The notes under the pieces were generated by a model. The model had not been told where the DNA came from, searched no databases, and saw only the letters and a list, made by a program, of their open reading frames with translations. Shown in pieces: positions 2 to 52,591 of a stretch of 64,000 bases of DNA; position 1 is the stretch's first letter; the number at the start of each line of letters is the position of its first letter. Source of the stretch: Turneriella sp. (GTDB lineage Bacteria > Spirochaetota > Leptospiria > Turneriellales > Turneriellaceae); contig CBDIID010000003.1 in assembly GCA_965279515.1 (NCBI GenBank), positions 2,880,001-2,944,000 of the forward strand, in the 5' to 3' direction. The position numbers and the translations under genes were made by a program.

Positions 2-478
2 GGAAAAATCTTCATCAACGATTTCCACGGCGGCACATTTTTCGCCCGCATCTACGTTACCGGTAAACAATTCGAGGGCGGCGTGCTCGAGTTGGATGCC
101 CGCCCCTCAGACGCCATTGCGCTCGCGGTACGTTTCCGCTCGCCGATTTACGTGGCAGAACATGTCTATGACCGCACGGCGATTGACCCCGTCACATTAC
201 GCGAAGCCGACGGCGATGCCATACGCGCCTCGCAGGAAAGCACGGTCGACGATATATTAACCGCAGACGAGCGCGAAGAATTCTTCGAGGCGATTCTCGA
301 AGAGTTCGGCGAGAAGAAAAAAGCACCGAAAGAGAAAAAAGAAACCACGCTCGAAAAAGTGAAATTCTTTTCACGCACCGAAGTGTTGCAGCAGATGTTG
401 AAGACAGCATTGGACCGCGAAAAATACGAAGAAGCGGCCCGTTTGCGCGATGAGCTGAGATCAGAACCAAATAACTAA
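2..478 (+). CDS. Bifunctional nuclease (DUF151) with C-terminal UvrB/C motif; 5'-truncated by window edge
   Basis: Frame open from base 2 (KIFINDFHGGTFFARI...ELDARPSDAIALAVR...PIYV); C-terminal LKTALDREKYEEAARLRDEL UVR motif. Confidence 0.85.
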   Translation, partial: GKIFINDFHGGTFFARIYVTGKQFEGGVLELDARPSDAIALAVRFRSPIYVAEHVYDRTAIDPVTLREADGDAIRASQESTVDDILTADEREEFFEAILEEFGEKKKAPKEKKETTLEKVKFFSRTEVLQQMLKTALDREKYEEAARLRDELRSEPNN

Positions 479-598
479 CGCCGCGCTGGCTCGGCTGTTG
501 GCTGGTTGGTTGTGAAAGCCTTGAAGGCGGACGTTGCAGTTTCTTTGAGGTTCTCGAAATCTCATATTACTGGTGATGGCCGTTAGGGGCCCCTGAAT

Positions 599-1480
599 AT
601 GATACGAAAAATCTTTAATCTAAATACAATCTCCGTTACCGGATGGTTCATCGGTGTTTTGGGTCTGGTGACATCGTTTTATTTCTATTACGAATCAGTG
701 AAGGCGCGCGAGCCTTATTTTCTTACTGCAGAAAGCGCCGTTCCGTTAACAGAGATATTTGATACGGGCAAGCAGACGACGAAGAGATCTAACCAGATTT
801 CCGTCTTTTGGCGCACCAATGAGAATAAGATGACGGAAATTACCGGTAATATTTACGTCCTAAGGGTTTACTTTTGGAACAACGGAAAAGAGTCAATCAA
901 GCAAGAGAATCTATTGTCGCCAATGACAATCTTCTCAGAAAATCCAGCAAACAGGCTATTAAGTGCGAATCTGATCAAGGCATCCCGGCCGGAAATTAAT
1001 GCAGTAAAAATCTCTCAAAACGGCAAAGAAAATTCCATCAATTTTCAATTTCGGATTTTGGAGCAAAAAGAAGGCTTTTGTGCTCAGATTATTTATGTAG
1101 GACATTCCGATCATAAAATTAAATTCAGAGGTGAAATCGAAGGTGTTACTCAAGTCACAACAGATAATCGCAGCAGCATTTTGACACGAACCGCAATTGG
1201 CATTGGCCTTTTAATAGCCATATTTGTAATCGGTGCAATAGTCGTTTTGGGTTTTCTTTTTTTGTTTTACAAGACAGTCTTGCAAATCCTTCGCCTATTA
1301 TTTAGATTATTCAAGAAAAAGCTTTTTGCTCGTTGGCATAAGTCTGTTAAAAAGAACCCGGAAGCTCTCTTTAGCATAACCATGATTCTTGGCGCCATAA
1401 TTATGCTTGTTCATATGCTGGCCACAAGACTACCTATCGAATCCGCAAGCATCCCAGAGTCGATTCGAATTGAGAAATAG
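599..1480 (+). CDS. Hypothetical membrane protein (N-terminal TM, soluble domain, two C-terminal TMs)
   Basis: 293-aa AT-rich ORF with three hydrophobic stretches; no family recognised. Confidence 0.7.
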   Translation: MIRKIFNLNTISVTGWFIGVLGLVTSFYFYYESVKAREPYFLTAESAVPLTEIFDTGKQTTKRSNQISVFWRTNENKMTEITGNIYVLRVYFWNNGKESIKQENLLSPMTIFSENPANRLLSANLIKASRPEINAVKISQNGKENSINFQFRILEQKEGFCAQIIYVGHSDHKIKFRGEIEGVTQVTTDNRSSILTRTAIGIGLLIAIFVIGAIVVLGFLFLFYKTVLQILRLLFRLFKKKLFARWHKSVKKNPEALFSITMILGAIIMLVHMLATRLPIESASIPESIRIEK

Positions 1481-1552
1481 CCAACGACATCTAAAGAAAT
1501 TTACCTGCAGCGCGTGCTGGAGTGCCTCGGGCAGATTGATTGTCATAGAATG
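1478..1552 (+). repeat. attC-like element E0 (degenerate)
   Basis: TAGCCAACG-N16-ACCTGCxGC with the same spacing as the element after 6215; ACCTGC pairs imperfectly with GCAGAT (1531). Confidence 0.45.
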
Positions 1553-1635
1553 ACTTTACGGAGCACGAAATTGAACAAAGAGTCACCCGTCATCAGCTAT
1601 ATGCCACCTTATCTCGAATAAGGCGCTAATATGTC

Positions 1636-2636: not shown

Positions 2637-2884
2637 TTCAGAAAACAAAATTTTTCCGCTGCTCGCTGCGGTGCTTAGCTCCTCCGAAGGCGAACACTCG
2701 GCGACCCCTCATCGCGCGTGCTCCCTAAGGGGAGATTCGCTTCGCTCATCGCGGACGACGCGCATACCGGGAGGTGTGTTTTTGCTCATCGCCGCGAGCA
2801 CGTTTTTTGCCGCGAATCGGCTTTACAAAATGACTAAATGGTGCAGGCGTCAAAAGCGTCGATGTAAAATCCACGTTGTCTGAA
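2637..2884 (+). repeat. attC-like element E1 (long, mosaic)
   Basis: Terminal inverted repeat TTCAGAAAAC (2637-2646) / GTTGTCTGAA (2875-2884), 1 mismatch; shares blocks with 4075-4107 and 5434-5510. Confidence 0.65.
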
Positions 2885-4010: not shown

Positions 4011-4143
4011 AAACCTGTTGCGAACAATGCGGTGCCGTTGCTCCTTGCGAGGACGGAGACGCGGCTTCGCTTCGTCGCGCGTGCTCCCTAGGGGGAGACT
4101 TGCTTCGTGCGGCGCACTTATGCTCTCACGATGCCCAGCTAAT
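4011..4143 (+). repeat. attC-like element E3 (degenerate)
   Basis: Begins at the stop of the repeat gene; TCGCGCGTGCTCCCTAxGGGGAGAxTxGCTTCG (4075-4107) nearly identical to 2712-2744. Confidence 0.55.
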
Positions 4144-4158
4144 TGACAGTAGGCAAGG

Positions 4159-5395: not shown

Positions 5396-5516
5396 ATCAG
5401 ACAACAAATTTTACGCGCGTCGCCACAATCGCATTTTTTCTACCCGAATCGGCTTTACAAATTGATGAATTGACACGGGGGTCGAGACACGGCAGCGTAA
5501 AAACACATTGCAAGCC
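5396..5516 (+). repeat. attC-like element E2
   Basis: TCAGACAAC, then TTTTACGC (5409-5416) inverted with GCGTAAAA (5495-5502), then ATTGCAAGCC-ATG; 17-bp identity CGAATCGGCTTTACAAA with 2813-2829. Confidence 0.7.
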
Positions 5517-6215
5517 ATGGGCCAAGGTACATTCTATACAATGAAAAGACATAAGAACTTCTTTCGCTATTTGTTTCTCTTAATCATGCTGACCTCCCCT
5601 GGCACCGCCATCGAAGTCATGGCCCTGTCCAAAGGCACCTTGAATGTGAGAGCTGGTTCCCTTGAAAGTAGTAAGATAGTGGGTAAGCTACCCCAGGGTG
5701 CATTGATGAGCCTGCTGGACCGCAGCAAATCTACTTATCAAATCGATAGATTAAAAGATAATTGGTGCAAGATCCGCCATTTACAAACGGAGGGTTGGGT
5801 TTTTTGCGCCTATATCGGCCGGTACTATCGGCAAAAAAAAGACGATTTTGGTCCACGCACTTATTTGCCCGACGAAAGTCAAATTCTGCATGCAAAAACG
5901 ACCCACACAGAACCTCAGGGAGAGAATCGCTCCGTAGGTTCTGAATCATCTACCATCACCACGTATAAGAATGGCATTGTGCACACCGCGATTTCACAGT
6001 ATGAAGGTGGTGAGGATTTGTTTTTTTTTCCGGAAGCAAACTTATATGAAGGCTTCCTCATGATTCAAGGACTTGCGCCAGGCGTAGAAGCTTTGGATTG
6101 GCAAAATCAAAAAATGAAGAATGGCGTGATAGAATTTCAGCATGGAGGCAATGGAACGGTATCCGTGCGACGTAAAGGAAACGGTATAGAGATTCGGTCC
6201 ATATGGGGTGCGTAG
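5517..6215 (+). CDS. SH3 domain-containing exported protein
   Basis: LNVRAG...IVGKLPQG...WCKI...EGWVFCAYI bacterial SH3 signature; start 5517 or 5541. Confidence 0.8.
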   Translation: MGQGTFYTMKRHKNFFRYLFLLIMLTSPGTAIEVMALSKGTLNVRAGSLESSKIVGKLPQGALMSLLDRSKSTYQIDRLKDNWCKIRHLQTEGWVFCAYIGRYYRQKKDDFGPRTYLPDESQILHAKTTHTEPQGENRSVGSESSTITTYKNGIVHTAISQYEGGEDLFFFPEANLYEGFLMIQGLAPGVEALDWQNQKMKNGVIEFQHGGNGTVSVRRKGNGIEIRSIWGA

Positions 6216-6323
6216 CCAACGGCCTACAACAAAACTGACCTGCGGCACCAAACGACCATGTTTGGTGAAAACGCTCAAAATCCAAATCAGCGCGAAACTT
6301 CGGAAGGCCGCAGGTGCCTTCCG
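6213..6323 (+). repeat. attC-like element E4
   Basis: GGCCTACAAC-AAAAC-TGACCTGCGGC; ACCTGCGGC (6238-6246) inverted with GCCGCAGGT (6307-6315); internal CACCAAAC/GTTTGGTG hairpin. Confidence 0.6.
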
Positions 6324-6524
6324 CGAAAAAATCTATGGAGCTTTTTCTACGACGCCCGCTTGCTTGCAATAGAAATCTGCTTTTGCATTGTTCAGGCGGA
6401 GCGTTTAAGAACGCCTTTACAGGCCATTTTCGACCCCTGATTCGATCCGCAAAAGCTCAGGAGCTGCCTATGTTCACGTCAATTTTCCGGAGGAAAACAA
6501 TATGAAGACATAAGGAGTATGTAA

Positions 6525-8113: not shown

Positions 8114-8132
8114 AGACTTCTTCGCCAGAGGG

Positions 8133-9173: not shown

Positions 9174-9225
9174 AGGGCCGCATGGAGGAGCGAAACGCCG
9201 AGACAAGATAAATTAGCTGCGAAGC

Positions 9226-10131: not shown

Positions 10132-10183
10132 GTGAATTCCGATTCTGTTTGACGCGCTGCCTTTTTTGCCGTCTTTCCCTTAC

Positions 10184-10726
10184 ATGATCCGCAAGGCGGA
10201 ATATTACAGGGCGTCGGGCAAGGCCGGGCAGAAAAAGTGGCGCGCTTATGCGTTGTCATTTGTCATTGTTACCGTCATTGCGTTTCTGCTGCAGTTCATC
10301 TTTAGACAGTTGTTTTTCTATCCCCTGAAAATTTCGTCCGACAGCATGACCCCGGAAATCCAATCCGGAGACAAGCGTTACTTTATCCATCCGAAATTGA
10401 CGACGGTTGTCGCGGGCGATGTCGTGCTGGTGCGTTCGCCGGCAACTGATGCTGATTTTCTCTGCCGCGTAGCCGCGGTTGACGGCGACAAGGTAAAAAT
10501 CGCTGCCGGGCAGTTCTTCGTGAACGGGCAGGTAAAAAAATCTTTCGAGCCGCGCCTGGCGATACCCGAAGATCGCAGTTTTGCAATGAACGAGATCGAA
10601 GTGCGGCCCAATTATTTTTTCTGCCTGAACGATAACTACCGCAACACCCGCGATTCGCGCACGGCGGGCATCTTTGAGCGCGGCCAGATCACGGCAAAAA
10701 TCATCAAGCCGACACTGTTCTTCTGA
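10184..10726 (+). CDS. S26 signal peptidase I-like protein (catalytic Lys replaced by Cys)
   Basis: TM + SSDSMTP, GDVVLV, DFLCRV..DGD, NDNYRNTRDSR boxes. Confidence 0.75.
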   Translation: MIRKAEYYRASGKAGQKKWRAYALSFVIVTVIAFLLQFIFRQLFFYPLKISSDSMTPEIQSGDKRYFIHPKLTTVVAGDVVLVRSPATDADFLCRVAAVDGDKVKIAAGQFFVNGQVKKSFEPRLAIPEDRSFAMNEIEVRPNYFFCLNDNYRNTRDSRTAGIFERGQITAKIIKPTLFF

Positions 10727-11643: not shown

Positions 11644-13230
11644 TTACGGGGCTTTGGGTGCGGGCGCATCCGTTGCGGCCTTGAGCCACGCTTCGAATCC
11701 CGCATCTTGCCTGAGCGGCGCATAGAGTTTGAGCTTACGGAAATTGCCTTCGAGTTTTGTGCGCGCTTTGGGGTTCTTGAGGTAAACACTGCCTTTAGTT
11801 CTGATACCAGCCCAATCACCCAGGTGGGCCATTGTCATGAGGTGGAGATTCATCTGTGAAGGCGTCAGGTTTTTGATTTTGTCAAATTCGACGAGCGCCG
11901 AGCCATATTCCTTGAGCGCAAAAAAAGACACTGCGCGCCAGCCATTGAAGTCCTTGTTTTTTTCGAGGTTCTTGCGGAAGCGCTCCGTCAGCTCGAGCAC
12001 GGCGCGGTATTTTTCCGCTTTAAAAAGCACACCGATCGCAACGGGGAGATCCGACATGGCGTAGGCGGGCATCGTCGCTTCATTCTCGTCTGTTTCCACG
12101 GCTTCTTTTTCATAGATTTTCGCCGCATACGATGCGGCCTTCTCGTTGTTCTTTTCGGCGAGGGCCCTTTTCATGGCGATGAGATTCAGAAACACAGGGC
12201 TCTCTGACTTTTTCGAAAACTTGCAATACTCCTCGTCGGCTTCACCGGCCGACAAGGCGCCGAGGCAAAACACGCGCTTCACACTGAGCGCCGCCTTTGC
12301 CTTCAGCTCAAGGTCGGCGCCGATGCGGCGGGCGATTTTCGCGTGGGCAAAGGATTCCGGGTAATGACCGAGGCCGTAGTGCGCCTGGGCGGCGTTCAGG
12401 CGGATAAAGAATTTCAGCTGCGGATCTTCAATCGGTTTCTCGAGCGCTGCGGCAAAATATTTCAGCGAACCCGCGTAATCGCCATTACGGCGCGCGAAAG
12501 CCCCGAGTTTATATGCCGCGCTGGGATCTTCCGAGTTTTCCCAGATCAGTTTGTAGGTGGCCTGGGCTTCGCGCGGCTCTTTCAGTTTCTCGTAGTACTG
12601 CGCGATTTTCCAGCGGTAATCTTTGAGGCGAGCGTCTTCGGCGATCGCCGCTTTGTAAGCCGCGATGATCGAGCGCATGAGTTCTGCCGCTTCGTCGTCG
12701 GCCTGGTCTTCGCGCTCTTTCAACTCCGTTTCGAGTGCCAGGGCTTTTTTCAGGCTGGCGTTCGTTTGCCCACCTGAAGAGACCGGCCCCTGGTAGTTGC
12801 CTGCTTCAGCGCGGATCTTTTCAAAGAGCTCGCTCTTCTCGCCCATATCTTGCAGGCGATCGACGTAACGCAGCGATTCGCCATAGAGCTTTGCCTGCCG
12901 GCAAAGAATCACCATTTTCCAGTAGGCGACTTTTTTGAATTTTTTCTGCATGGGCCGCTCAGCCGCCGCGCGAAAGTGTTGTATGCTTTCGGCGTATTGC
13001 CGGCGGGCTTCCAGAATGAGTCCGATATACAGGTGCGGATCACCGCTTTCGTCTCCGTTATCGATCGCTTCCTGGAAATGTTTCCGGGCGGTGTCGAACG
13101 AACCTTTCGAGTAGGCCTTTTCGCCGAGCAGAAGTTCTTTGCTCTTCGCGGTGAGAGAGCCTGTGCCCAGTAAGACAAGGACAAGAAAAAACTTCCGCCA
13201 CCCGGGGCCCCAAGAGGTTATTCCTGCCAT
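11644..13230 (-). CDS. Exported TPR-repeat protein
   Basis: Signal peptide after Met at 13230, multiple TPR-like helices; the upstream ORF extension overlaps the TolC gene and is likely spurious. Confidence 0.75.
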   Translation of the reverse strand: MAGITSWGPGWRKFFLVLVLLGTGSLTAKSKELLLGEKAYSKGSFDTARKHFQEAIDNGDESGDPHLYIGLILEARRQYAESIQHFRAAAERPMQKKFKKVAYWKMVILCRQAKLYGESLRYVDRLQDMGEKSELFEKIRAEAGNYQGPVSSGGQTNASLKKALALETELKEREDQADDEAAELMRSIIAAYKAAIAEDARLKDYRWKIAQYYEKLKEPREAQATYKLIWENSEDPSAAYKLGAFARRNGDYAGSLKYFAAALEKPIEDPQLKFFIRLNAAQAHYGLGHYPESFAHAKIARRIGADLELKAKAALSVKRVFCLGALSAGEADEEYCKFSKKSESPVFLNLIAMKRALAEKNNEKAASYAAKIYEKEAVETDENEATMPAYAMSDLPVAIGVLFKAEKYRAVLELTERFRKNLEKNKDFNGWRAVSFFALKEYGSALVEFDKIKNLTPSQMNLHLMTMAHLGDWAGIRTKGSVYLKNPKARTKLEGNFRKLKLYAPLRQDAGFEAWLKAATDAPAPKAP

Positions 13231-14570
13231 GTTTTGAGCGTCGCCTGATCGCCGATTTCCATCGCCAGCCGCGCTGCGGCGAGGCACAGGTTGAATTCGG
13301 ATTCTGCGACTTCCTTTTCTGTCAAAAGCTGAGCACCCAGGGCCTCGATCAGATCTTTCGCTGTGCCCGTGCCTGTCGTGTACGCCGTCATTTCTGACAG
13401 CGACCACTTATTCGCTTCTTTATACTTATTCTGACTGATCTCGAGCTGCACCTTTTGTTTCTCAAAATCCCACATCGCCATCGCGACCTTGAGTGGCACA
13501 CCGGTTAAGGCCTCACCCTGCTTTGCCTGCATCTTCTCCAGCTCGGCCTCAGCGCGCATGACCTTTGCCTTGGTATTGCCGAAGTCGAGATCCCACTTGG
13601 CGCCAAATACCACGGCAAACCAATTACGGTTATAAGGATCGAAAGCGTAGCTCGATTGCTGCTGGTCGCGCGCGCTGGTGTAATTGAGTTCGGTGCGGCT
13701 GGCAAGAAACAGCACGGGCAGATTGCCGCCCTTTTCCATTTCCACCTGGTGGCGCCGTGCCTGCAAACCTTCGCCGACAGCTTTGAGGTCGGGGTTCGAA
13801 CGGTGCGCTTCGGTGATGAGCTGTTCGAGTGCACGCGTCGCGTCGGTGACTTTCGGAAAGTCCCCCTCCAGCACCAAAAGCGATTCTTTTTCGCCGAGGT
13901 AGTGCCCCAGCGCCAGGCCGGATGTCTTTTTGTTCGCCAGCCATTCGGCATTGAAGCGCTGCAATTCCAGTGCAAAGAGTTTGAGGCGCGTGAGATCCTT
14001 GCGCTGCACTTCGCCGGTACCTTTTTTGTAGATGGATTCGGCGCGGCTCAGCACGGTTTTCATTTTATCGTTCGCGTCATCGAGCACGGTTTTGAGGCGA
14101 TTCAGCAGAATAATCTGCATGTAGAGTTGTTTGTAATCGAAGATGCTCTTGTTGATCTGGCTTTCGTGCAGGTAGCGTGCGCCTTCGACCGCGTGAGACG
14201 CTGCCTGCTTGCCGTCCTTGATGCGGCCGAAGCTGAATACGGGATAGACAATCTGTAGTTCGGCATGCACGAAGGGCGCCCACTTGCCGTAGTTCGCTTC
14301 GGAATAGGCCGGCGTGCCGCGTGATTCGAAAATCGGCGCGGCATAGGTGAGGAGGGAAAACGTCGGCAAGTCGAGCGCCGATGCTTCGGCCTGGTAGGCA
14401 GAGAAGCTCAGGATCTGCGCTTTGCTCTCGAGTATCTTGGCGTTATTCCTGAGAAGCTGTGTCAGGCCGTCGGCAAAACGGATCGGCTTTTCTGCAGAGA
14501 CTCCGCCAACGGACAGGAAAACCAGGCCGCAAACAAAGCTGCTATTTATTAATTTTTTGAATCCGTTCAC
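13218..14570 (-). CDS. TolC-family outer-membrane efflux protein
   Basis: Signal peptide, two OEP-like repeats (NPDL, YxxGxG motifs). Confidence 0.85.
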   Translation of the reverse strand: MNGFKKLINSSFVCGLVFLSVGGVSAEKPIRFADGLTQLLRNNAKILESKAQILSFSAYQAEASALDLPTFSLLTYAAPIFESRGTPAYSEANYGKWAPFVHAELQIVYPVFSFGRIKDGKQAASHAVEGARYLHESQINKSIFDYKQLYMQIILLNRLKTVLDDANDKMKTVLSRAESIYKKGTGEVQRKDLTRLKLFALELQRFNAEWLANKKTSGLALGHYLGEKESLLVLEGDFPKVTDATRALEQLITEAHRSNPDLKAVGEGLQARRHQVEMEKGGNLPVLFLASRTELNYTSARDQQQSSYAFDPYNRNWFAVVFGAKWDLDFGNTKAKVMRAEAELEKMQAKQGEALTGVPLKVAMAMWDFEKQKVQLEISQNKYKEANKWSLSEMTAYTTGTGTAKDLIEALGAQLLTEKEVAESEFNLCLAAARLAMEIGDQATLKTWQE

Positions 14571-15168
14571 GCAGCAATTTCACCAGGTGTTTATAACCTT
14601 TTTTATTGATGATCGACGAGAACTGATTGCGAAAATCGAGCAAGGTCGACGCTTCGTCGATATGTACGTCATAGAGTTTCAGGCCGTCGCCGCTACGGTA
14701 AAGGAAAAACTCTACCTTAAAGCTCTGTTTGCGGTGGGGCACCTTGGTGTTGACGATGATCGCTTCTTTTTCGAAGACATCGTCGGTTTCAACCCGCTCT
14801 GAAATGATTTCAATGGGAATCTTACCCGTGATGACCTTCTGCGAGGGGATGTTCGCCTCAACAACGCGGTTGGCCATCAGCTCGTGGAAGAGACCGAGAA
14901 AGTCTTCTTGCTGCGCCGGTGTCAGCTTGGCATAGTGTTTACCCAAGGCCAGCTTACCGATTTCCTTGATGTCAAGAATTTGCAATGCCATCTCGCGCGC
15001 CCGCGCTGATACTTCTTTGCGTTTCTCATCGCTGAAATCCTGCGCGAGTTCGGCGCGCAGCTTTTCAAAATTACCGATGATATTCTGCATGTATTCGAGC
15101 CCTTCGCCGGCGCTGACCGCCGAGGCTGCGAGAAATAAATAACAAAAAACGGCTCTAAGACGGGACAT
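14542..15168 (-). CDS. MlaC/Ttg2D-family lipid-binding protein
   Basis: ALGKHY.KLTPAQQEDF...KLYDVHIDEASTLLDFRNQF..II.KKG; start placed at Met 15168. Confidence 0.8.
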   Translation of the reverse strand: MSRLRAVFCYLFLAASAVSAGEGLEYMQNIIGNFEKLRAELAQDFSDEKRKEVSARAREMALQILDIKEIGKLALGKHYAKLTPAQQEDFLGLFHELMANRVVEANIPSQKVITGKIPIEIISERVETDDVFEKEAIIVNTKVPHRKQSFKVEFFLYRSGDGLKLYDVHIDEASTLLDFRNQFSSIINKKGYKHLVKLLRERIQKINK

Positions 15169-15179
15169 AACGGGAAGGG

Positions 15180-15353
15180 TTAATCCTTCTTTTTGCGAAA
15201 ATACGCCACGATGATTATGATGGCTAAAACAACGAGAACAACCTTCGTAATTTTCCAGAGTGTGCCCACGATGAAGGGAATGCAACCGTCGGGAAGAAAC
15301 AGCGCCAGTACCACAAGCGCCAGAATAAACAGCAGCGTATTCGGTCTTTGCAT
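15180..15353 (-). CDS. Small 57-aa two-TM membrane protein (not in ORF track)
   Basis: Translated by hand: MQRPNTLLFILALVVLALFLPDGCIPFIVGTLWKITKVVLVVLAIIIVAYFRKKKD*. Confidence 0.6.
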   Translation of the reverse strand: MQRPNTLLFILALVVLALFLPDGCIPFIVGTLWKITKVVLVVLAIIIIVAYFRKKKD

Positions 15354-15459
15354 CCGTTTTTTTCCGGTATCGCTGGCTTGCCGTCAAGTGAAATGCCATA
15401 TACAAATGCCATATACCTTGACGCAAGGTCTAAGTTCCCTTTTTCGTCGGGTATTCGTG

Positions 15460-16065
15460 ATGCGTCGGATGTCTTTACACAAGGGTTTAATCCCATCTAT
15501 TCTAGCATTTGCTCTTTCTGCGGGCGCACTCAGCGCCCAGGTTGAAGGCGAAGCGTGGAAGTTTAAACCTCAGATCGGCGTCTGGTTCGGGCCTGTGACG
15601 CCGGCCCCTGGTAGTGTACTTTCCGACGTGCTCACAACGAGTCTGGGCGGAGGACTTTTTTTCCGCGGTAATATTCCTTCCAACACTCTGCGCCTGGAAA
15701 TCGGCGCATCCTATAGTTACTACACATCCAGGACTACCGCGCGTTTACACTCGATACCCATTTACGGTGCGATCTGCTATACGTTGCCCATCAGCTTACC
15801 CCTGAGTTTTTTTGTAAAAGCGGGGGCAGGCGGCAATTTTCTCCGCAATGCCCCAGAAGGGTCCCGCAATTGGTTACCGGCAGGATACTTGGGTTTTGAA
15901 ACATCGTTTCCGGCCGGTAAGCTCATCAATATTGGCGTGCGTGCGGATTATCTTTTTGTCTACGAGAAACATTTAAGTCCTCCATCCAATAATCCCAACT
16001 ATGAAGTTTACAATGGGCATTTTTTTAATTTCGGCCTGATGGTGAATTTCAATTTAAGCAGATAG
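15460..16065 (+). CDS. Outer-membrane beta-barrel-like exported protein
   Basis: Signal peptide (ILAFALSAGALSA), amphipathic strands, C-terminal FNFGLMVNFNL; start 15460 or 15469. Confidence 0.7.
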   Translation: MRRMSLHKGLIPSILAFALSAGALSAQVEGEAWKFKPQIGVWFGPVTPAPGSVLSDVLTTSLGGGLFFRGNIPSNTLRLEIGASYSYYTSRTTARLHSIPIYGAICYTLPISLPLSFFVKAGAGGNFLRNAPEGSRNWLPAGYLGFETSFPAGKLINIGVRADYLFVYEKHLSPPSNNPNYEVYNGHFFNFGLMVNFNLSR

Positions 16066-16067
16066 AA

Positions 16068-17585
16068 ATGAAGAAACCCGTTATTTATCTGTTTTTGGTC
16101 GCTGGATTCACGGTACACTGTTCCGGTGATTTGCCGCTTTCTGATCTCGTGAATAATACCGTAACCTTAAAGGTTATGGGGACATACGAAAGCAATGATC
16201 CTTACCCCCTTCAACATGCGGGTGTTGCTAATGCACTGCCGCTAGATGATGTAATTAACGCCGGTATCTCAGGCTCAAACCCAACCATCGCTGCTGGTTC
16301 TGATCTCTATAATTACATTACCAGCGGGGCTGCGGATTCGAGAGATCCTAATGGAGTCTTTCCCCAGTGGCAAGCTCATGCAGATAAAATCAGGTATTAT
16401 ATTGATATTGCTGAAATCCGTCTTGCCGAAGGGCAAGGAAAATCTTCCAGCCAATCGATTTCCGATTACTGGTCACAGTTCGCGATTACGCGACAACTCA
16501 TGTGTTCTGATTACGGTACCACTGATCCCAACCGAATCCTCACAAATTGTCAGGGATCAAGCGGGGTAGATCGCCTGGCACAGTTTTTTGCGGGAGGATT
16601 CAACTACCCCGCAGTCGATGTGGCTACTGGTAACTATAATCATATGGGAATATATTTTCGCCGCTTTGCAACCTATCCGGCGGCATCTTTTACTGGGCAA
16701 GGTCAGTACATACCATCTACCGCTGACAATAATACATGGGGAACAGATGGGGTAAGAACGAGATCGGAAGGAATTGCAACCGCGACGTTTGACAACCGCA
16801 CCATCTATGGCGCCGATATTGAGGGTTTTCTCCAGAACCCATACGGGGCAACTGCAGCTGAGCCACTCATGTTCCCACTACAACGTAAAGACTTATCGCT
16901 CAGGATTACTAACGGCGCTGAACCCTACGTTCTGGAAGTCCGAATTTTCCTCCAGAATCTGATGATGATTCATGTCCGACAGGTGAGCAATGATATCAAT
17001 ACGTCGAATGCGAGTGACCCGGCAAAGATAAACCTTGCATCAAACAATGCATCCGTTTATGTTGCTCCGGCTGACTGGAATATAGATCACAAATTCCTGG
17101 AAACCGATGGTTCCGGTAACAGTGCGAAGCAAGGCGGGTCTGTGCTTATGACGGCCCGCGTGTATCAGCCGAAATATGTTGGCAGCATAAAGATTAAAAA
17201 TTCTGCCGCCACCCAAGGTGACTATTTTGCCGTTGTTTCGGCTGGGACAACATTTCCGGGCCAAGTCTGGGCAGTAGACGCAAATACGCCGTCTACGACC
17301 ATCTTACCTTTAGCGGCTACAAGAGCTTATACCTCTGGCACAACAAATCACACAATTACGAATTTGCCGCCTGGTAATTACAATCTCTATCGTACGTGCG
17401 ATATTAAAAAATGCTTAAAAACCTCAACTGCTGGCTATTGCGATCAGTTAGGTGGCAATAAAATAACTCCCCAAACCGACGGATTTCCCGAAACCTCAGA
17501 CACTTGCGGATCGTGGACAGTTACCGCGGGAACGGAGACCAGCGTTGACTTTGCTACTTCGTGCCCGGCCGTAAATTGCCCGTAA
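16068..17585 (+). CDS. Surface lipoprotein resembling the leptospiral LIC11270 family
   Basis: Lipobox-like TVHC-SGD; LKVMGTYES, YIDIAEIRL, LEVRIFLQNLMM segments; Cys-rich C-terminus; family recalled from memory. Confidence 0.6.
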   Translation: MKKPVIYLFLVAGFTVHCSGDLPLSDLVNNTVTLKVMGTYESNDPYPLQHAGVANALPLDDVINAGISGSNPTIAAGSDLYNYITSGAADSRDPNGVFPQWQAHADKIRYYIDIAEIRLAEGQGKSSSQSISDYWSQFAITRQLMCSDYGTTDPNRILTNCQGSSGVDRLAQFFAGGFNYPAVDVATGNYNHMGIYFRRFATYPAASFTGQGQYIPSTADNNTWGTDGVRTRSEGIATATFDNRTIYGADIEGFLQNPYGATAAEPLMFPLQRKDLSLRITNGAEPYVLEVRIFLQNLMMIHVRQVSNDINTSNASDPAKINLASNNASVYVAPADWNIDHKFLETDGSGNSAKQGGSVLMTARVYQPKYVGSIKIKNSAATQGDYFAVVSAGTTFPGQVWAVDANTPSTTILPLAATRAYTSGTTNHTITNLPPGNYNLYRTCDIKKCLKTSTAGYCDQLGGNKITPQTDGFPETSDTCGSWTVTAGTETSVDFATSCPAVNCP

Positions 17586-17636
17586 ATTCATAGCCTTCTT
17601 CTTGACCCCCTATTTTCCTCACCGCCTTAATCCGCC

Positions 17637-18800
17637 ATGAAGATTCATGAGTATCAGGGCAAAGAAATATTCCGCAAATACAAGATCGCCGTTCCCAACG
17701 GCATCGTCACAAACTCAGCCGACGAAGCAGCAGCGATTTATACAAAGCTCGGCAAGTCTGTAGCAGTTGTTAAGGCGCAAATCCATGCCGGTGGCCGCGG
17801 TAAGGGGGGCGGTGTTAAGCTGGCGAAATCAGCCGACGAAGCCAAGACGCATGCAAAAGCCATCCTTGGCATGATGCTCAAAACCCCGCAAACGGGTCCC
17901 GAAGGCCAGAAGGTCAATACGATTCTCGTTGAAGAAGGCTCTGACATTCTCAAAGAATATTATGTCGGGATCACCCTCGACCGCCGTATCTCGAAACCTG
18001 TGATGATGGTTTCGACGGAAGGTGGCATGGATATCGAAGAAGTGGCGCACCATTCTCCCGAGAAGATTCTGAAAGAAACCATTGAACCAGCGCTGGGCCT
18101 GCAACGTTTCCAGGCGTCGCGCCTCGCCTATGGCCTCGGCTTTGAAGGCGATATGGCAAAACAGGCGATCGCAATTCTCACAAACCTGTGGAATTGTTAT
18201 GATGGTGAGGATTGCTCCCTCATGGAAATTAATCCGCTGATCTCAACCAAAGACGGCAAGGTCATGGCGCTCGACGCGAAAGTGAACTTTGACGATAACG
18301 CGCAATACCGTCACCCCGATCAGGTGGGCCTGCGCGACGAAGCCGAAGAAGATGCGCTTGAAGTTGAAGCGTCGAAATACAACCTCAACTACGTGCGTCT
18401 CGACGGCGAAGTCGGCTGCATGGTGAACGGCGCTGGTCTCGCGATGGCGACGATGGATATCATCAAGTACGCAGGTTCATCCCCGGCGAACTTTCTCGAT
18501 GTCGGCGGCGGGGCGAATGTAACGACTGTCACCAACGGTTTTAAAATCATTCTCTCTGACCCGAATGTGAAAGCGATCTTTGTAAACATCTTCGGTGGCA
18601 TTGTCCGCTGCGATCGTATTGCGAACGGCATTATCGAAGCCGCGAAGAATGTGAAGATCACCGTGCCACTGGTTGTGCGCCTCGCGGGTACCAACGCTGA
18701 AGAAGCGAAGGAAATCCTCAAGAACAGCGGTATCCAACTCGATGTCGCCGACGGTCTCAAAGACGGCGCCGAGAAAGTCGTCAAAGCGATCAGAAAATAG
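17637..18800 (+). CDS. sucC: Succinyl-CoA ligase beta subunit
   Basis: [47 protein letters not shown]. Confidence 0.97.
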
Positions 18801-18957
18801 GCAAAAAAATGGACGTTTCCAGCCTGTTTGGATAACATTTGGTTGTGAGTGCGCTATTGTTCATTGGGATCGTTCTGTCTATTTCGTCCGGGCTTTATTT
18901 TATTAGTCTGGGCATTTCCCGGGTGATTAGCGATAACATAAAAAAAGAACTCGCAAA

Positions 18958-19122
18958 GTGACAGGTAGATTTGCTATTTTCCTTGGAACTTTGATTATAG
19001 CTACGCTTACAGCATTACTCTGGACTTTCAAGGAATATAGGCCGCTAGTTGATATACTTGTCTTTATTCTAGGCGTTACTGGCGGGCTCTTGGCCATAAT
19101 TCAGTTCTTTAAAGGAAAATGA
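18958..19122 (+). CDS. Small 54-aa two-TM protein (GTG start; not in ORF track)
   Basis: Hand translation VTGRFAIFLGTLIIATLTALLWTFKEYRPLVDILVFILGVTGGLLAIIQFFKGK*; stop abuts the next start. Confidence 0.45.
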   Translation: MTGRFAIFLGTLIIATLTALLWTFKEYRPLVDILVFILGVTGGLLAIIQFFKGK

Positions 19123-19986
19123 TTGTCCCCCGAACTTTCCAGCTGGCTTTCCTCTGGCAGATACTTTGACTTTAAGGGTCGGGGTATCTTCGTCAAAGAG
19201 TCCAAGCCCTCCCGCAAAGACGCAATCCTGCTGATCCATGGCTTTCCCACCTCGTCGTGGGATTTCCTGCCGATTTGGGAAAAGCTTGCGAAAAAATACC
19301 GGCTCATTACCCTTGATATGCTGGGCTTCGGCTTTTCGGCAAAGCCGCAAAAGCATACCTACTCGATTATCGAGCAGGCAGATATCATCGAGGCCGTCCT
19401 CTTCAATTTAAAGATCCGCAAGTACCATATCTTAGCGCACGACTACGGCGTCTCCGTCGCACAAGAATTGCTGGCGCGGCAGGCGGGTCAGAAAAAGCCG
19501 GCGCTCTCGGTGTGTTTCCTCAATGGCGGGCTCTACCCTGAATTCCATAAGCCATTGCTGATTCAGAAATTGATGTTGGGGCCGCTGGGGCCCTTGCTCG
19601 CGCGTCTGTCTTCAAAAGGTAAACTGCGTTCATCGTTCAACGCGATCTTCGGTGAGAGAAAACCGAGCGTGGCCGAAATCGATCTGTTCTGGGAGCTGAT
19701 CCGCTACAACAAGGGCCGCCTTGTGATTCCAAAATTGCTGCGCTATATGACCGAGCGTCGTCTTTACCGTGAGCGTTGGGTGAACGCCATGGAGCAAACG
19801 AAAATCCCGGTGCAGATGATTAACGGGCCGCTCGACCCTATTTCGGGCGCGCACCTGGCCGAAGCCTTTGTGCTGCGAAACCCGAAAGCGCGCGTGGATT
19901 CACTCCCCGGCGTCGGGCACTATCCGCAGGTCGAGGCACCTGACCAGGTCGCGGCGCTCTACCTGGATTTTTTGAAGCGGGCATAA
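19123..19986 (+). CDS. Alpha/beta hydrolase (epoxide hydrolase/MEST-like)
   Basis: HGFPTSSWD, AHDYG, GHYPQVEAP. Confidence 0.9.
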   Translation: MSPELSSWLSSGRYFDFKGRGIFVKESKPSRKDAILLIHGFPTSSWDFLPIWEKLAKKYRLITLDMLGFGFSAKPQKHTYSIIEQADIIEAVLFNLKIRKYHILAHDYGVSVAQELLARQAGQKKPALSVCFLNGGLYPEFHKPLLIQKLMLGPLGPLLARLSSKGKLRSSFNAIFGERKPSVAEIDLFWELIRYNKGRLVIPKLLRYMTERRLYRERWVNAMEQTKIPVQMINGPLDPISGAHLAEAFVLRNPKARVDSLPGVGHYPQVEAPDQVAALYLDFLKRA

Positions 19987-20021
19987 CCTCGCCCCTTATA
20001 AGGGGAGGGCTGGGGTGGGGT
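19987..20021. repeat. REP-like palindromic repeat between convergent genes
   Basis: CCTCGCCCCTTATAAGGGGAGGGCTGGGGTGGGG, near-identical to 22991-23024. Confidence 0.75.
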
Positions 20022-46092: not shown

Positions 46093-47193
46093 TTAGAGGG
46101 GGCTTTGGATTTTCTTCAATGACCGCTTTGCGACGCGTGTATAAGTCGTCGTGGTGCGGATATGTTCATGCCCCAGAAGTTGCTGAATATGGCGGATGTC
46201 TGTTCCGGCTTCAAGCAGGTGGGTCGCGAACGAATGACGGAAGCTATGCGCGGACGCACCGCGCCAGACACCCGCGGCCTTCAAGGCGCGGGCGACTACC
46301 TGTTGCAGCGTACGGATCGCCAGGGGGCGACCCGGTTTATGGCCTGAGTCGAACAGGAAATCTTGCCCGCGCTTTCCTTGTACGAGGGCCCTGAGCAGGG
46401 GTATTTGCCGTTCGGAAATAATGGTCAGACGATCTTTCTTGCCTTTGCCTTGCCGTATCATCAGCGCCGATTGCGGCAGGTCGATATCTGCGATGCGGAT
46501 TTTCACGACTTCAGAAACGCGCAGGCCCGAGGAATACATGAGCGAGACCATGAGCCAGTGCTTCTGGTTTTTGATCGAGTTCAGGGTCCTTTCAATTTCG
46601 GCCGCAGATAAGACGATGGGCAGAGGTTTTGCGCCCCGCATCGTGCGGATGAGTGTAAACTCACGCTTCTCGCCGTTGGTTTCACAGAAAAGCCGGAGTG
46701 CCGCGCGAAACCCGCGCAGGCCCTGGTTTGTAATCCCCGTTTCTTTGCGGTGTAGCATGTATGCCACAACCAGTTTTTCAGAAATTGCTACCGAAAGTTT
46801 CTCTCCCCGTCCCTTAAGCCACAGGTGGAAACCCACCATGGTGTGCCTGTAACTGCGCAATGTAGCGGCGGAGTAATTACGCAGCCGTAGAATATTTGCC
46901 AGATTCTGCAGTTGCACCCGCAACGCAGGTTCTGCCGATAGATCGGAGCGCTGGATTTTCGGCGGAGGGGGGCTCAGGTTCCTCAATTGGTCGCGGCGCG
47001 GCCGGACCAGCTGCCGGCCCTTTTGCGCTTGAACTTCCTTGCTGTGATATTCGTGGATTGCCTGAATCTCGGTCTCGCTGACGCCTCGCAAACTCTGCAG
47101 ATAGGCGCTGAGATCAGGCTTGGAGATGTGCGCTATCGTATTGCCAAAAACCGCTTCAATTTCCCTGATTATCCCCAGCGTCTCTGGAATCAC
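46093..47193 (-). CDS. Integron-integrase-like tyrosine recombinase lacking the IntI-specific insertion
   Basis: LRLRNYSAATLRSY (SAM_4-type N-domain), LPIVLS, YSSGLRVSE, GKGKKDR, HSFRHSFATHLLEAGTDIRHIQQLLGH, TTTTY; R-K-H-R-H-Y catalytic set intact. Confidence 0.9.
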   Translation of the reverse strand: MIPETLGIIREIEAVFGNTIAHISKPDLSAYLQSLRGVSETEIQAIHEYHSKEVQAQKGRQLVRPRRDQLRNLSPPPPKIQRSDLSAEPALRVQLQNLANILRLRNYSAATLRSYRHTMVGFHLWLKGRGEKLSVAISEKLVVAYMLHRKETGITNQGLRGFRAALRLFCETNGEKREFTLIRTMRGAKPLPIVLSAAEIERTLNSIKNQKHWLMVSLMYSSGLRVSEVVKIRIADIDLPQSALMIRQGKGKKDRLTIISERQIPLLRALVQGKRGQDFLFDSGHKPGRPLAIRTLQQVVARALKAAGVWRGASAHSFRHSFATHLLEAGTDIRHIQQLLGHEHIRTTTTYTRVAKRSLKKIQSPL

Positions 47194-47197: not shown

Positions 47198-47215
47198 ATA
47201 GAACAAAAATAGAAC
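47198..47215. promoter_or_regulatory. ATAGAAC direct repeat (GAAC-N7-GAAC) upstream of the recombinase
   Basis: ATAGAAC at 47198-47204 and 47209-47215, immediately before the GTG start. Confidence 0.45.
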
Positions 47216-47260
47216 TAACTCCTTGTAAAGTTTTTTCCGCGAATGCCGCCCGGCAAAATT

Positions 47261-48628: not shown

Positions 48629-49090
48629 TTATTCAGGTTTGGGACTATCATGTTCGCACTGGAGAAGTAAATCTGGCATCTTATCGTAGGGTATACTTAC
48701 AAACTTTACAGTTTCTTTGACTTTATAATCTGTTCGGAGCATCTTCAGGAGTTTTTCCTCAAAAGGTTTATGGTAGTCAACAGCCCCTATCCTGACATCG
48801 TGAATGATTTCCAGGTTCAAAACCTGATTTCTCTCCTGATTTATCGATATGGTAAAATAATGGTATGGATCGCCCATGTAGCACAAATAAACCGATAAAT
48901 TGCAGCGGCAATTCTCATCGGGATTGAGTTCATTTTCCTGCGCTATCTTATCTATTGCGGCTTTCAGTCTTTCCGCATTCCCCTTGAATTTTGCATTCTC
49001 TGTACTTAATTGAAAGGTTGCTGAGCCGCCACAAGAAGCCGCCAATATTGTGAAGTTTAGCATAAGCAGAAAATTACAAATTGGTTTCAT
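48629..49090 (-). CDS. Hypothetical lipoprotein (AT-rich)
   Basis: ILAASC lipobox; no family recognised. Confidence 0.65.
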   Translation of the reverse strand: MKPICNFLLMLNFTILAASCGGSATFQLSTENAKFKGNAERLKAAIDKIAQENELNPDENCRCNLSVYLCYMGDPYHYFTISINQERNQVLNLEIIHDVRIGAVDYHKPFEEKLLKMLRTDYKVKETVKFVSIPYDKMPDLLLQCEHDSPKPE

Positions 49091-49202
49091 TTTGCGTCAC
49101 TCAATCTATCCGCAGCGCCTCGCGGGAAAGCATAAAACAAGCGATCGTCGGCGCTTTGCCCTCGATCTTCTGGCGCGCAGCTTGTAAATCTCGTTCTCTA
49201 AC
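49091..49202 (-). repeat. attC-like element E5 directly before the lipoprotein start
   Basis: Minus strand AGAGAAC-GAGAT-TTAC...GCGCGCC / GGCGCTGC...GTGACGCAAA-ATG; arms resemble E1/E2. Confidence 0.4.
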
Positions 49203-49456: not shown

Positions 49457-50410
49457 ATGTATAGCGCCTACCTGACTGAAACCCTAAAATTGAGAAGAGC
49501 CAATGGGTTTACTGTGTTGGATTTGTTTGCTGGCGCTGGTGGTTTGTCACTCGGCTTCGAAGCCGCTGGCTTTACCACTTTGGGACAAGAAATTAATAGT
49601 GATGCGTGCCTAACCTACAATCATAACCTTAAAGGTAAATGTGTACAAGAACGGATCAGTGTCTCGAACAGCTTCCCGAAAGCTGATGTGATTATTGGCG
49701 GACCGCCATGTCAACCGTTTAGTGTTCTCGGAAATCGCCTTGGTATCGAAGACGATCGGAATGGTTTCCCTGCGGTAATTCAAGCAATAAAACAGGTAAA
49801 GCCACGAATATTTCTGCTCGAGAATGTCAAAGGTTTAGTTGGCAGCCACAGCACCTACTTCCAAACCGTTCTTCGGTCATTACGAAATCTAAAATACAAT
49901 GTAGCATTTCAGGTCATTAATGCAAAAGATTATGGCGTCCCCCAAAATAGGGAACGAGTACTTATTATTGGCTCCAAAATTCCATACGCATTTCCGAAAA
50001 AACGTACTTTGAGCGTAAATGCCGGTTATGCAATTAACGACATCTTGCCCAAGATGAATAGAGGTGCAAAACTACTGACCAAAAAAATGGATCAATATAT
50101 TGCACGATATGAAAAGGCATCTAAATGCGTGACGCCAAGGGATCTGAATCTCTCTAGGCCGGCTAGGACTCTCACATGCCGCAATCTATCAGGTTTTACT
50201 GGAGATATGCATCGAATAAAAATGAAAAATGGACGGCGAAGAAGGCTGTCAATTCGTGAAGCTGCGAGACTACAAAGCTTTCCAGACTGGTTTGAGTTTT
50301 TTGGAACAGAAGCTAGTCAATTAGTACAAATCGGAAATGCGGTTCCGCCATTATTAGCTTACCAGCTAGCAGAGTCCTTTAAAAAAGCTTTGCGAGGAAA
50401 TGTGATATGA
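49457..50410 (+). CDS. DNA (cytosine-5)-methyltransferase
   Basis: DLFAGAGG, GGPPCQPFS, ENVKG, PQNRER, REAARLQSFP, QIGNAVPP. Confidence 0.96.
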   Translation: MYSAYLTETLKLRRANGFTVLDLFAGAGGLSLGFEAAGFTTLGQEINSDACLTYNHNLKGKCVQERISVSNSFPKADVIIGGPPCQPFSVLGNRLGIEDDRNGFPAVIQAIKQVKPRIFLLENVKGLVGSHSTYFQTVLRSLRNLKYNVAFQVINAKDYGVPQNRERVLIIGSKIPYAFPKKRTLSVNAGYAINDILPKMNRGAKLLTKKMDQYIARYEKASKCVTPRDLNLSRPARTLTCRNLSGFTGDMHRIKMKNGRRRRLSIREAARLQSFPDWFEFFGTEASQLVQIGNAVPPLLAYQLAESFKKALRGNVI

Positions 50411-50434
50411 AAAACAAAGGAAAAGGGTTTCAGA

Positions 50435-51523
50435 ATGAATGTTGACAAACTCCCCAAAATAGAGTTTATCGAAATTGCCAAGCTGAACTTTGATCCACAC
50501 AATCCAAGATTACCAACGACGGTTTTGAATACCAAGGATGAAAGTGAAGTCATTGCTTGGATGCTCAAAGACGCGTCTATCCTTGAGCTCATGGGAGCAA
50601 TAGGCGAAAAGGGTTTTTTTCCTGCAGAGCCATTACTGGTCTGTGCAGAAAAAGGCAAATCTGATTCTTATATTGTGGTAGAAGGGAATCGTCGTTTAGC
50701 TGCCTTGAAATTACTTTCTAGACCTGATCTTGCGGCCCAAAAGAAAGCGTCAATTCAAAGTATCATAAGTGAAGCAAACTACACGCCGCAGAAGGTACCA
50801 GCAATTATATATGACACAAGAGCAGAAATCTTGGACTACCTTGGGTTTCGACATATAACTGGTGTAAAGTCCTGGCGGCCGTTAGCTAAAGCAAAGTATC
50901 TAAAAGATTTGAAGAAACAATATGAAAAGCTAAGTCTTGATCAGCAATTCATTCACTTAGCAAAAGCGATTGGAAGTCGGGCAGATTATGCACGCCAGTT
51001 GCTTGTAGGCTTAGAATTATTTGATCGCATTTATGAGAAAAATTATTTTGGAATAGCGGGATTACAAGAAGACACCATTGATTTCGGAGTGTTTTACAAC
51101 GCTCTTCGGTGGAATAACATTGTGAAATTCTTAAATGTAGATCTTCAATCGAAAAAGCCAACTGCAAGGATCGACATGAAAAATCTTGAAGAATTAGTGA
51201 GGTGGGTGGCTGAAAAAAATTCTGAAAATTTCACAAGGCTCGGGGAATCACGAAACTTAAAGCATCTAAATTCCATTGTAGGAAATAAAAAAGCTTTGGC
51301 TGAATTCCGAAGGGGTAAATCTCTTGAGGATGCCGTTATATTTACAGATGAGCCAGATGAAGTTTTTCGAACTTCCATCCAAAGCTCGTTGAAACAACTT
51401 GAAACAGCAAATAGCTATTTCCCAAAAATCGAGATAGTCGACGAATCTGACTTGGAAGATTTAAAATCTATCACAAAAATATCCGCAATTCTTCAAAGTT
51501 CGATCCGTAATAAACTCAACTAG
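50435..51523 (+). CDS. ParB/Srx-like N-terminal domain protein
   Basis: FDPHNPRL, EPLLV, YIVVEGNRRLAALKLL; RHITGVKSW.PLAKA. Confidence 0.75.
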   Translation: MNVDKLPKIEFIEIAKLNFDPHNPRLPTTVLNTKDESEVIAWMLKDASILELMGAIGEKGFFPAEPLLVCAEKGKSDSYIVVEGNRRLAALKLLSRPDLAAQKKASIQSIISEANYTPQKVPAIIYDTRAEILDYLGFRHITGVKSWRPLAKAKYLKDLKKQYEKLSLDQQFIHLAKAIGSRADYARQLLVGLELFDRIYEKNYFGIAGLQEDTIDFGVFYNALRWNNIVKFLNVDLQSKKPTARIDMKNLEELVRWVAEKNSENFTRLGESRNLKHLNSIVGNKKALAEFRRGKSLEDAVIFTDEPDEVFRTSIQSSLKQLETANSYFPKIEIVDESDLEDLKSITKISAILQSSIRNKLN

Positions 51524-51526
51524 CAG

Positions 51527-52591
51527 ATGCGGCAGCGGAAGAAGAAGGGAGTAAAGTCTGCTTTAGACGCCAAATACTTTTCAACACTTGAAAAGAATCC
51601 TGATTATTCAAAAACGGATTCGTATTTATGGGCTGACTATATCGAACTTATCTGTTTGGCAAATATTGACGGACAGATTTCAATCGATGCACTGCTGGAT
51701 CGCATAGTGGATAGGCAAAAAGATCTCCAGGAGGCGGATCCGGATGATTTATCAGAACTTAATGGTTTAGAGGCCGAAGATGACATAGCAACTAGACGTT
51801 CTGAGATTATTGATAAGTGGAGAGGAAGTGCCGAAGATTGGTTCAAAGTTCTCGAGGCCCGTGCTGGTACGTATGGTAAAGATTATCCATTCTCGGTTAA
51901 ATCTGGCGATGAGCTGTTTCTTGTTCATAGGCTTACGCAAAGACATCGTTTATATTTATTTTTTCTATTCTGCTCTAATCTTTCTTTTTTTGAAAAACAA
52001 CATCAAACTTTACTCTCAAATAGCTTTGAAATGGTTGCCTTTTGGGCCACCGCTGGGATATTGCCTAAGTCCGCGACAATAGACCTTTTTGGAGCAAATG
52101 CATTAAACGTAAAAGGGAGGTATAAAACCGGCACTACCTTATGGGAAAAAATAAATACACTTACCCAGGAGATTCGCGAAAATCTTCAGCCAAGAATCTC
52201 AGAGGCAAATTACAAGGTTCACAATCATGGGGATGATGGATTAGATATCGTTGGCTACATTCCAACCGGAGATAACCTCTCGAGCATGCCCGTGTTTTTG
52301 GGGCAATGCACTTGTCAAAAAGAGTGGTGGAAAAAACAGTCAGAGTCAAGTTATGACGTTTGGAGCGCAAAAATTACTCTCACAACATATTCGAATAATC
52401 TTATGTATATCCCTTATTGCTTTCGAGGAGCCCGCGGTGAATGGTTTAACTCAGGAAAAATTTCTAAAACGTTTCTCATCGACCGCAAAAGATTACTTCA
52501 TTTTCTTCAAGGAAAAGAGACTCAAGTAAGCAACTTAAGTTGCCAAAAAATTTTGAACAAGATAATCCTACAGAAAGAAGCCGTTTTCTAA
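51527..52591 (+). CDS. Hypothetical protein with Mrr-like PD-(D/E)XK motif
   Basis: FEMVA...GDDGLDIVGY...VFLGQCTC. Confidence 0.55.
   Translation: MRQRKKKGVKSALDAKYFSTLEKNPDYSKTDSYLWADYIELICLANIDGQISIDALLDRIVDRQKDLQEADPDDLSELNGLEAEDDIATRRSEIIDKWRGSAEDWFKVLEARAGTYGKDYPFSVKSGDELFLVHRLTQRHRLYLFFLFCSNLSFFEKQHQTLLSNSFEMVAFWATAGILPKSATIDLFGANALNVKGRYKTGTTLWEKINTLTQEIRENLQPRISEANYKVHNHGDDGLDIVGYIPTGDNLSSMPVFLGQCTCQKEWWKKQSESSYDVWSAKITLTTYSNNLMYIPYCFRGARGEWFNSGKISKTFLIDRKRLLHFLQGKETQVSNLSCQKILNKIILQKEAVF

Follow-up and report, generated by a model that had tools for sequence, protein, structure and literature searches.

A putative cassette recombinase without the IntI insertion and its predicted action in trans on two large cassette arrays in a Turneriella genome

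What a recombinase of integron-integrase type acts on, when it lacks the insertion typical of IntI and no cassette array adjoins its gene, is the question raised by one locus in the genome of a Turneriella sp. The locus lies in the window, the stretch of 64,000 nucleotides that was analyzed here (G000:C3:2880001-2944000, where G000 is this genome and C3 its main contig). The preliminary description of this DNA suggested an integron-like system of another recombinase clade, acting on scattered cassette-like elements (E0 to E5) about 40 kb from the gene. The first part of that suggestion is supported by the analysis, but the main substrates are predicted to be two headed arrays elsewhere on the chromosome and not E0 to E5. 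We suggest, with a probability of roughly 0.8, that the gene encodes the cassette recombinase of a noncanonical integron, which has become detached and would act in trans on two superarrays of about 130 cassettes under predicted LexA control. The coordinates of the features are collected in Table 1.

Table 1. Features of the recombinase locus, the window, and the two superarrays (window positions unless a contig is given)
Feature	Position	Strand	Remarks
Recombinase ORF	46093..47193	-	366 aa, GTG start, intact
N-terminal three-helix domain, aa 1-62	47008..47193	-	AF2 pLDDT 86
Core-binding (SAM-like) domain, ~aa 89-172	46678..46929	-	PF02899 and helices in the structure model
Catalytic domain without IntI insertion	46126..46611	-	PF00589 and alignment
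LexA-type direct repeat GTTC-N7-GTTC	47201..47215	-	8 nt before the start; GAACAAAAATAGAAC
Decayed half cassette site	49088..49199	-	E 1.3e-12; retains the left end, middle and right end gone
E0	470..595	+	Not a family member by profile
E1	1478..1613	+	Worn cassette site
E2	2639..2882	+	Sole whole cassette site in the window; internal insertions
E3	4013..4116	+	Worn, partial site; E 5e-4
E4	5396..5502	+	Left end intact, middle deleted
E5	6205..6330	+	Only a motif resembling a left end; no profile match
Array A	C3:90769-169921	one strand	76 sites
Array B	C3:3734378-3804592	one strand	53 sites

The description of the protein as an IntI-like recombinase with all catalytic residues, no IntI insertion, and an extra N-terminal segment proved to be correct. 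The full catalytic set (R225, K250/K253, H316, R319, H342, and Y351) is present in the intact 366-residue frame, and these residues are invariant in 65 aligned homologues, except for K253, which is nearly invariant. As in IntI, the R-K-H-R-H-Y set is combined with the tyrosine recombinase fold: the AlphaFold model has a mean pLDDT of 92.8, and its first fold match is VchIntIA (2a3v), followed by XerA. Pfam recognizes PF00589 and, weakly, PF02899. The spacing between GKGKKDR and HxxRH is 67 residues (65 to 69 in the orthologues), compared with 72 to 74 in XerC/D and 106 to 107 in canonical IntI (measurable by pattern in 12 of 15 sequences), and the alignment shows that the ALxRKYP..W.W.F block, the I2-bearing insertion between patch II and box II, is missing. 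None of the NCBIfam models scored at or above its cutoff: the protein reached 161 with TIGR02249 for IntI (cutoff 265), 170 and 159 with TIGR02224 and TIGR02225 (335 and 330), and at best 196 with NF040815 (220). The last model, XerA_Arch, is named "site-specific tyrosine recombinase/integron integrase" and is just passed by two orthologues; it is not diagnostic, since the XerD of this genome passes it too, and the likeness to archaeal XerA gave no indication of a dif function for the recombinase.

The extra N-terminal segment consists of a 62-residue three-helix domain followed by a proline-rich linker. Residues 1 to 62 are loosely conserved across the order, and class-level relatives carry a different, beta-rich-looking N-terminus. 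The domain is all-helical in the model, unlike the beta-stranded arm-binding domain of phage and ICE integrases. A Foldseek search with this domain returned nothing at E<=0.001. The highest Z in VIA was 5.4, and six of the top 36 rows were, judged by title, proteins of tyrosine recombinase type; hhalign against the recombinase's own core-binding domain gave 45%; and the best Atlas match was PF13495 at 0.78. These three leads are weak and none is significant, and the domain is possibly a degenerate second core-binding (SAM-like) unit.

The tree was built from 271 core columns and 62 rows, with the N-terminal and insertion columns dropped; it left out the orthologues of G004, G010, G023, and G034, most of a further clade, and archaeal XerA. 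The IntI reference set came from a search of the phylum above the TIGR02249 cutoff, together with one annotated IntI1; 77 loci had at first been taken for IntI, and those sampled belonged mostly to that further clade. IntI, the IS91-associated integrases, and the insertion-less group form one clade (100/99), with XerC/D outside it, so the recombinase does not group with XerC/D. Within that clade the 15 IntI form their own branch (100/99), outside which the recombinase falls, and the IS91-associated integrases form a separate branch (100/100); the order of the three subgroups is weakly supported (88/64 and 94/82). The nearest kin of the recombinase are the proteins of G001, G006, G005/G007, and G013, four of the five being encoded beside array heads, and its nearest named homologues are labeled Turneriella and Spirochaetes. 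A grouping with phage integrases was not borne out either, the best phage match having only 33% identity. In layout, substrate signature, kinship, and predicted regulation the enzyme resembles an integron integrase, but three tests set it apart from IntI.

Genome-wide, no canonical IntI explains the arrays. The assembly is 99.99% complete and encodes four tyrosine recombinases, namely XerD (above its cutoff), an XerC-like protein placed by the tree, a 301-aa paralogue at C3:2781225-2782130, and the recombinase of the window. Canonical IntI was found neither in this genome nor in 40 relatives (TIGR02249, 0 of 41 genomes), whereas the same search across the phylum placed 23 of 251 above the cutoff.

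The gene lies between genes for an FKBP and an alpha/beta hydrolase, with no transposase gene adjoining among the neighbors checked with Pfam, and its downstream neighbors are conserved in G001. The statement that the locus carries no att or phage cargo holds in that no array and no attI-like head was found upstream of the gene in this genome; it has to be modified for the decayed half site, which is co-oriented with the recombinase gene and lies beside a low-GC block. This block (window 49457-52591) comprises a C5 methylase, a PD-Lambda-5_A-like protein, and a gene of no known type, is followed by the half site on the minus strand, and may be an old defense cassette. The genes upstream of the recombinase gene in G001 (contig C370) correspond to those at C3:2770800-2776700 in this genome, which points to an inversion of about 150 kb with a breakpoint just upstream of the gene (window ~47200-47260).

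A BLAST search with the E elements uncovered the repeat family, and the profile made from it has 153 matches in the genome, 134 of them full length. The elements had been taken for dispersed ones, a view that does not hold for most of them: 129 of the 153 matches sit in two compact arrays; E0 to E5 are a decayed outpost of cassette sites. E0 may mark a secondary insertion of the first cassette, as judged from G|TT at 497/498 and from 7 nt that are complementary to the end of the cassette at 1478. An Rfam scan of window positions 1-9000 gave nothing near a gathering score. The outpost cassettes encode a weakly SIR2-like protein (window 1636-2628) and a protein with 21-residue leucine-rich repeats (3084-4010), and a BrnT/BrnA-like pair follows them at 7041-7584.

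Arrays A and B are far from all four tyrosine recombinase genes; the linear distances between the recombinase gene and the two heads are 0.88 Mb and 2.76 Mb. Each array starts with an attI-like head, TTGAC..CGCAAT.CAGNNAA-TAGACG|TT, in which TTGAC about 40 bases upstream is followed by CGC(A/C)AT and then by CAG-NN-AA, a run of six bases with G as the last, and TT. Compared with the known layout of dif, the heads are dif-like, being an inverted arm pair around a 6-bp center. A dif search with a 9-nt arm gave 14 loose matches, none of them clearly dif. A scan for a Pc promoter, made for head A only, found the conserved TTGAC about 40 nt upstream and no matching -10. Contigs from four sequencing runs on the head of array A contained joints within repeats, which were indistinguishable from assembly artifacts.

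The repeats are cassette recombination sites with a GTT core and self-complementary cassette ends. For 46 of the 52 cassettes in array A and all 32 in array B, the cassette end complements its own start in six of six bases (shuffle means, 4.1 and 7.3), whereas the two ends of one and the same site match in just 3 of 54 and 8 of 35. Over 117 cassettes the complement runs 13 to 15 bases past GTT, position 8 excepted; there, none of the 117 match, and in 115 a G-T pair is possible on the bottom strand only. Whole cassettes that are 100% identical occur across the arrays (A38/B27, A14/B37, and A60/B51) and within array B (B11/B26), and their neighbors differ. On the 3' side the identity stops 0 to 3 bases after GTT in all five pairs traced; on the 5' side it begins 2 to 6 nt before GTT in three of the four pairs traced and about 35 nt before it in the fourth.

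With a size of 186 to 218 nt (median 209), the sites form, when folded, a terminal stem that bears three arms. Two-sided changes were counted in 20 of 63 pairs in 12 sites, a figure that is inflated by sequence relatedness. By folding, the bottom strand is more stable than the top strand in 114 of 125 sites, and the AAC:GTT core is paired in the minimum-energy fold of the bottom strand in only 80 of 125. In 113 of 124 sites the L box is paired in 8 of 8 positions and has no bulge. The spacer between core and L box is asymmetric, with 2 versus 4 bases, and the center has 6 versus 4 nt; the arms vary at most positions between cassettes. An attC site is characterized by extrahelical bases in the L box and a symmetric unpaired spacer. 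This geometry is not that of the present sites, and by it they are not attC.

The link between the enzyme and the repeats comes from relatives. Of 13 same-genus relatives, 12 carry a single-copy orthologue of the recombinase gene, which also occurs beyond the genus; the orthologues occupy different chromosomal places. An arrangement of recombinase gene, attI-like head, and array side by side is not seen in this genome, but it is in 6 of the 11 same-genus relatives examined (G002, G003, G005, G007, G011, and G013), where the orthologue is divergent from a head followed by the same repeat family. The heads of arrays A and B align with the heads beside these orthologues, and in the six relatives the complementarity between the head core and the first cassette's end extends over 10, 10, 9, 10, 10, and 10 nt. 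The co-occurrence of enzyme and element family, suggested earlier as a check, is therefore positive. Within 20 kb upstream of the orthologue in G002 there are 20 sites, and in G011 the run of sites begins at the orthologue gene. Among the remaining relatives, G004, G006, and G012 have a head only, G008 offers just 73 bases of sequence, and G001 has no head. In G005 (L124/L125), a toxin-antitoxin-like pair lies between recombinase and head, with the head at about 900 bases. Beyond the genus, G024 of the same order also fits the head-plus-array layout, and in G029 a divergent array consists of a related repeat; G025 and G035 gave no convincing head at the orthologue. Another repeat, ~190 bp long and ending in CGTT(A/T)(G/T)GCG, makes up co-oriented downstream arrays in two class-level relatives, L133 (G036, 10100-20000) and L134 (G039, 1-9900), where the related recombinase has another N-terminus.

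Detachment is shared with the closest orthologue, that of G001, which also lies beside an FKBP gene, so the detachment predates the split between the two genomes. Between their catalytic domains dN is 0.14, with synonymous sites saturated. In G001, 5 pattern matches were obtained versus 2 in the control, together with 4 profile matches (3 contigs examined), a low site count that is ambiguous because the assembly is 84% complete and in 380 contigs. One of these sites follows a head-like sequence and has a 10-nt complementary cassette end. The genus contains at least two lineages of the enzyme, with 39% and 52 to 63% identity, so enzyme replacement does happen in it, and the orthologue of G003 is split in two frames.

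The LexA-type box before the recombinase gene recurs unchanged in front of lexA, recA, and a radical-SAM gene. LexA boxes of the GTTC-N7-GTTC type are known from Alphaproteobacteria. On C3 the pattern GAAC-NNN-WATAGAAC has five matches: one each in front of recA, the radical-SAM gene, and the recombinase gene, one between lexA and its divergent neighbor, and a looser fifth. A slightly wider pattern, with 15 matches in all, precedes lexA as well as the orthologue in five of five relatives; the weight of the box lies in its position and not in the count, since a reversed-pattern control gave 0 to 10 matches per genome. The box was retained after detachment in both this genome and G001. Its position makes it likely that the recombinase gene is under LexA control. 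According to Cambray et al. (PMC3108266), the LexA of spirochetes recognizes divergent motifs, which lay outside their search. A 244-aa gene without a Pfam match at G000:C3:4316100-4316834 (L161), which is divergent from lexA, shares the common box, and is conserved in five relatives, is a candidate SOS gene.

Four other explanations have to be weighed against a detached enzyme acting in trans. The arrays could have been built by an adjacent copy that has since been lost and could now be frozen, in the manner of a CALIN, with the present gene idle or kept for another job. The lack of a head beside the gene, the enzyme replacement seen in the genus, the few sites in G001, and the split copy in G003 would agree with this. 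Against it stand the fully identical cassettes with different neighbors in both arrays, the intact and strongly conserved frame with its box kept after detachment in G000 and G001, and the absence of any other integron-like remnant near either head. The identical copies could, however, predate the loss of a second, adjacent recombinase, and we regard frozen arrays as improbable and no more than that. A still poorer account is that the protein is an ordinary integrase of IS91-associated or island type, with no relation to the repeats. An IS91 neighbor was found at 48 of 80 metagenome loci of insertion-less relatives, so the wider insertion-less family does more than one job; yet the IS91-associated integrases form a separate branch, no transposase lies beside the gene, and the orthologues are single-copy and array-linked. 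Their adjacency to heads largely refutes this reading, to which we give hardly any credence.

The remaining two explanations assign the cassettes to another enzyme of the same genome. The 301-aa paralogue, alone or as a partner, is insertion-less, intact, and of the same broad clade, and it lies 1 kb from the array-type recombinase gene in G025 and 24 kb from a four-site outpost here. At none of 10 loci, however, is there a cassette site within ~1.5 kb of it, and it lacks a LexA-type box. No more than 7 of 13 same-genus relatives have a close orthologue of it (65 to 79% conserved, mostly beside a xanthine-dehydrogenase-like cluster), and searches of G013 (99% complete) and G005 (92%), both of which have head, array, and recombinase orthologue, did not find it. 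That it is the cassette recombinase is very unlikely. We consider it just as unlikely that the host XerC/XerD recombine the folded sites, as they do for phage CTX, with the recombinase gene as a bystander. The heads are dif-like (xAA, 6 nt, TT), the site stems are almost fully paired, and XerCD is described as recombining a phage site that is folded and has no bulged bases (PMC4792948), all of which suits XerC/D, but it is the orthologues of the recombinase and not xerC or xerD that lie beside arrays, at different chromosomal places, and the site arms are variable at most positions among cassettes.

If the detached enzyme is the cassette recombinase, the following course of events may be proposed. 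DNA damage would lift the repression by LexA, and the recombinase would be expressed. It would bind the folded bottom strand of the ~210-nt site, the terminal stem of which would mimic a double-stranded Xer-type site through its long R arm, its fully paired L arm, and its center of 6 versus 4 nt. A cut at G|TT would free a cassette circle, which would be inserted at the double-stranded head with its 6-bp center, and the recombination would be resolved by replication. I2 would not be needed, given that the L box has no bulged bases, and exchange of one strand only might be enforced by the asymmetric center and by the G-T wobbles formed on the bottom strand only. More speculatively, recognition of the upstream CGCAAT/TTGAC boxes, or else of the branched arms, may be the role of the N-terminal domain.

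Compared with known systems, the arrangement is closest in outline to sedentary chromosomal integrons, such as those of VchIntIA (PDB 2a3v) and Treponema: the recombinase of the relatives is divergent from the head, the array is on one strand, and the G|TT core, the self-complementary cassette ends, the bias of folding toward the bottom strand, and the SOS-type box are shared. Unlike sedentary integrons, it has no I2-bearing insertion, an extra N-terminal domain, and an enzyme that is here detached from both arrays. The sites differ from attC in being branched and ~210 nt long, in having an L box without bulged bases, a center of 6 versus 4 nt, and an R-arm complement of 13 to 15 nt with one invariant mismatch; the head, too, is different, with a center of 6 bp. 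With XerC/D on dif and on the folded CTX site, the system has in common a short catalytic domain, inverted arms around a 6-bp center, and a bulge-free stem; it differs from XerC/D in having one dedicated enzyme that falls outside the Xer clade, sites that are variable and number in the hundreds, and genes as cargo. According to the parts of Cury et al. (2016) consulted (PMC4889954), split integrons may remain functionally linked in trans; compared with such pairs of In0 and CALIN, both arrays are here very large, each has its own head, and the enzyme is not an IntI. The "integron-like" subgroup of tyrosine recombinases of Smyshlyaev et al. (PMC8138268, 10.1101/542381), likewise consulted in part, includes insertion-less members, and the recombinase resembles it in belonging to a clade with IntI and IS91-associated integrases. 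Those authors tie the insertion-less members to IS91/IS3 and not to cassette arrays, and the term attC is absent from the preprint (10.1101/542381).

We lean toward the broader interpretation that this is a second, EHB-free kind of integron, with an Xer-like insertion-less enzyme, large folded single-stranded sites, dif-like heads, its own LexA box, and two superarrays served in trans; it would be a living intermediate from before I2, with a different N-terminal reader in each lineage. In the sections of Escudero et al. (2016) consulted (PMC4792948), I2 is described as accommodating the bulged bases of attC, the question is raised how the two could have arisen without each other, and the lack of an intermediate from before I2 is called a chicken-and-egg paradox. 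With an I2-less enzyme and bulge-less sites, a single gene together with one head and one site is enough to put this question to the test, and a detached enzyme with two intact heads offers a test case for action in trans. SOS control through another type of LexA box, be it convergent or ancestral, would extend an integron hallmark to the insertion-less group. If two distant arrays with about 130 cassettes are shuffled by an insertion-less enzyme, the origin of integrons becomes directly testable. Because integrons are detected by the IntI insertion and by the geometry of attC, such an enzyme and its ~130 cassettes are missed by current definitions. In the literature outside subscription journals, we found neither a description of such a system nor a paper joining "Turneriella" and "integron."

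Some further observations concern the arrays and their surroundings. A third head-like sequence, TTTGAC..CAGAATAAACGTT, lies at G000:C3:3635159 on the minus strand, before a small outpost at C3:3630600-3634300. A 1,332-bp element, whose single long ORF of 417 codons looks transposase-like by eye, is present in eight copies, all inside arrays A and B, and is inserted about 11 to 14 bases after the GTT core in the cassettes compared (e.g., C3:156644-157975). Both arrays also contain short cassettes of ~182 bp, about ten in number and 91 to 100% alike (e.g., C3:155539-155723), which are possibly gene-less promoter or RNA cassettes.
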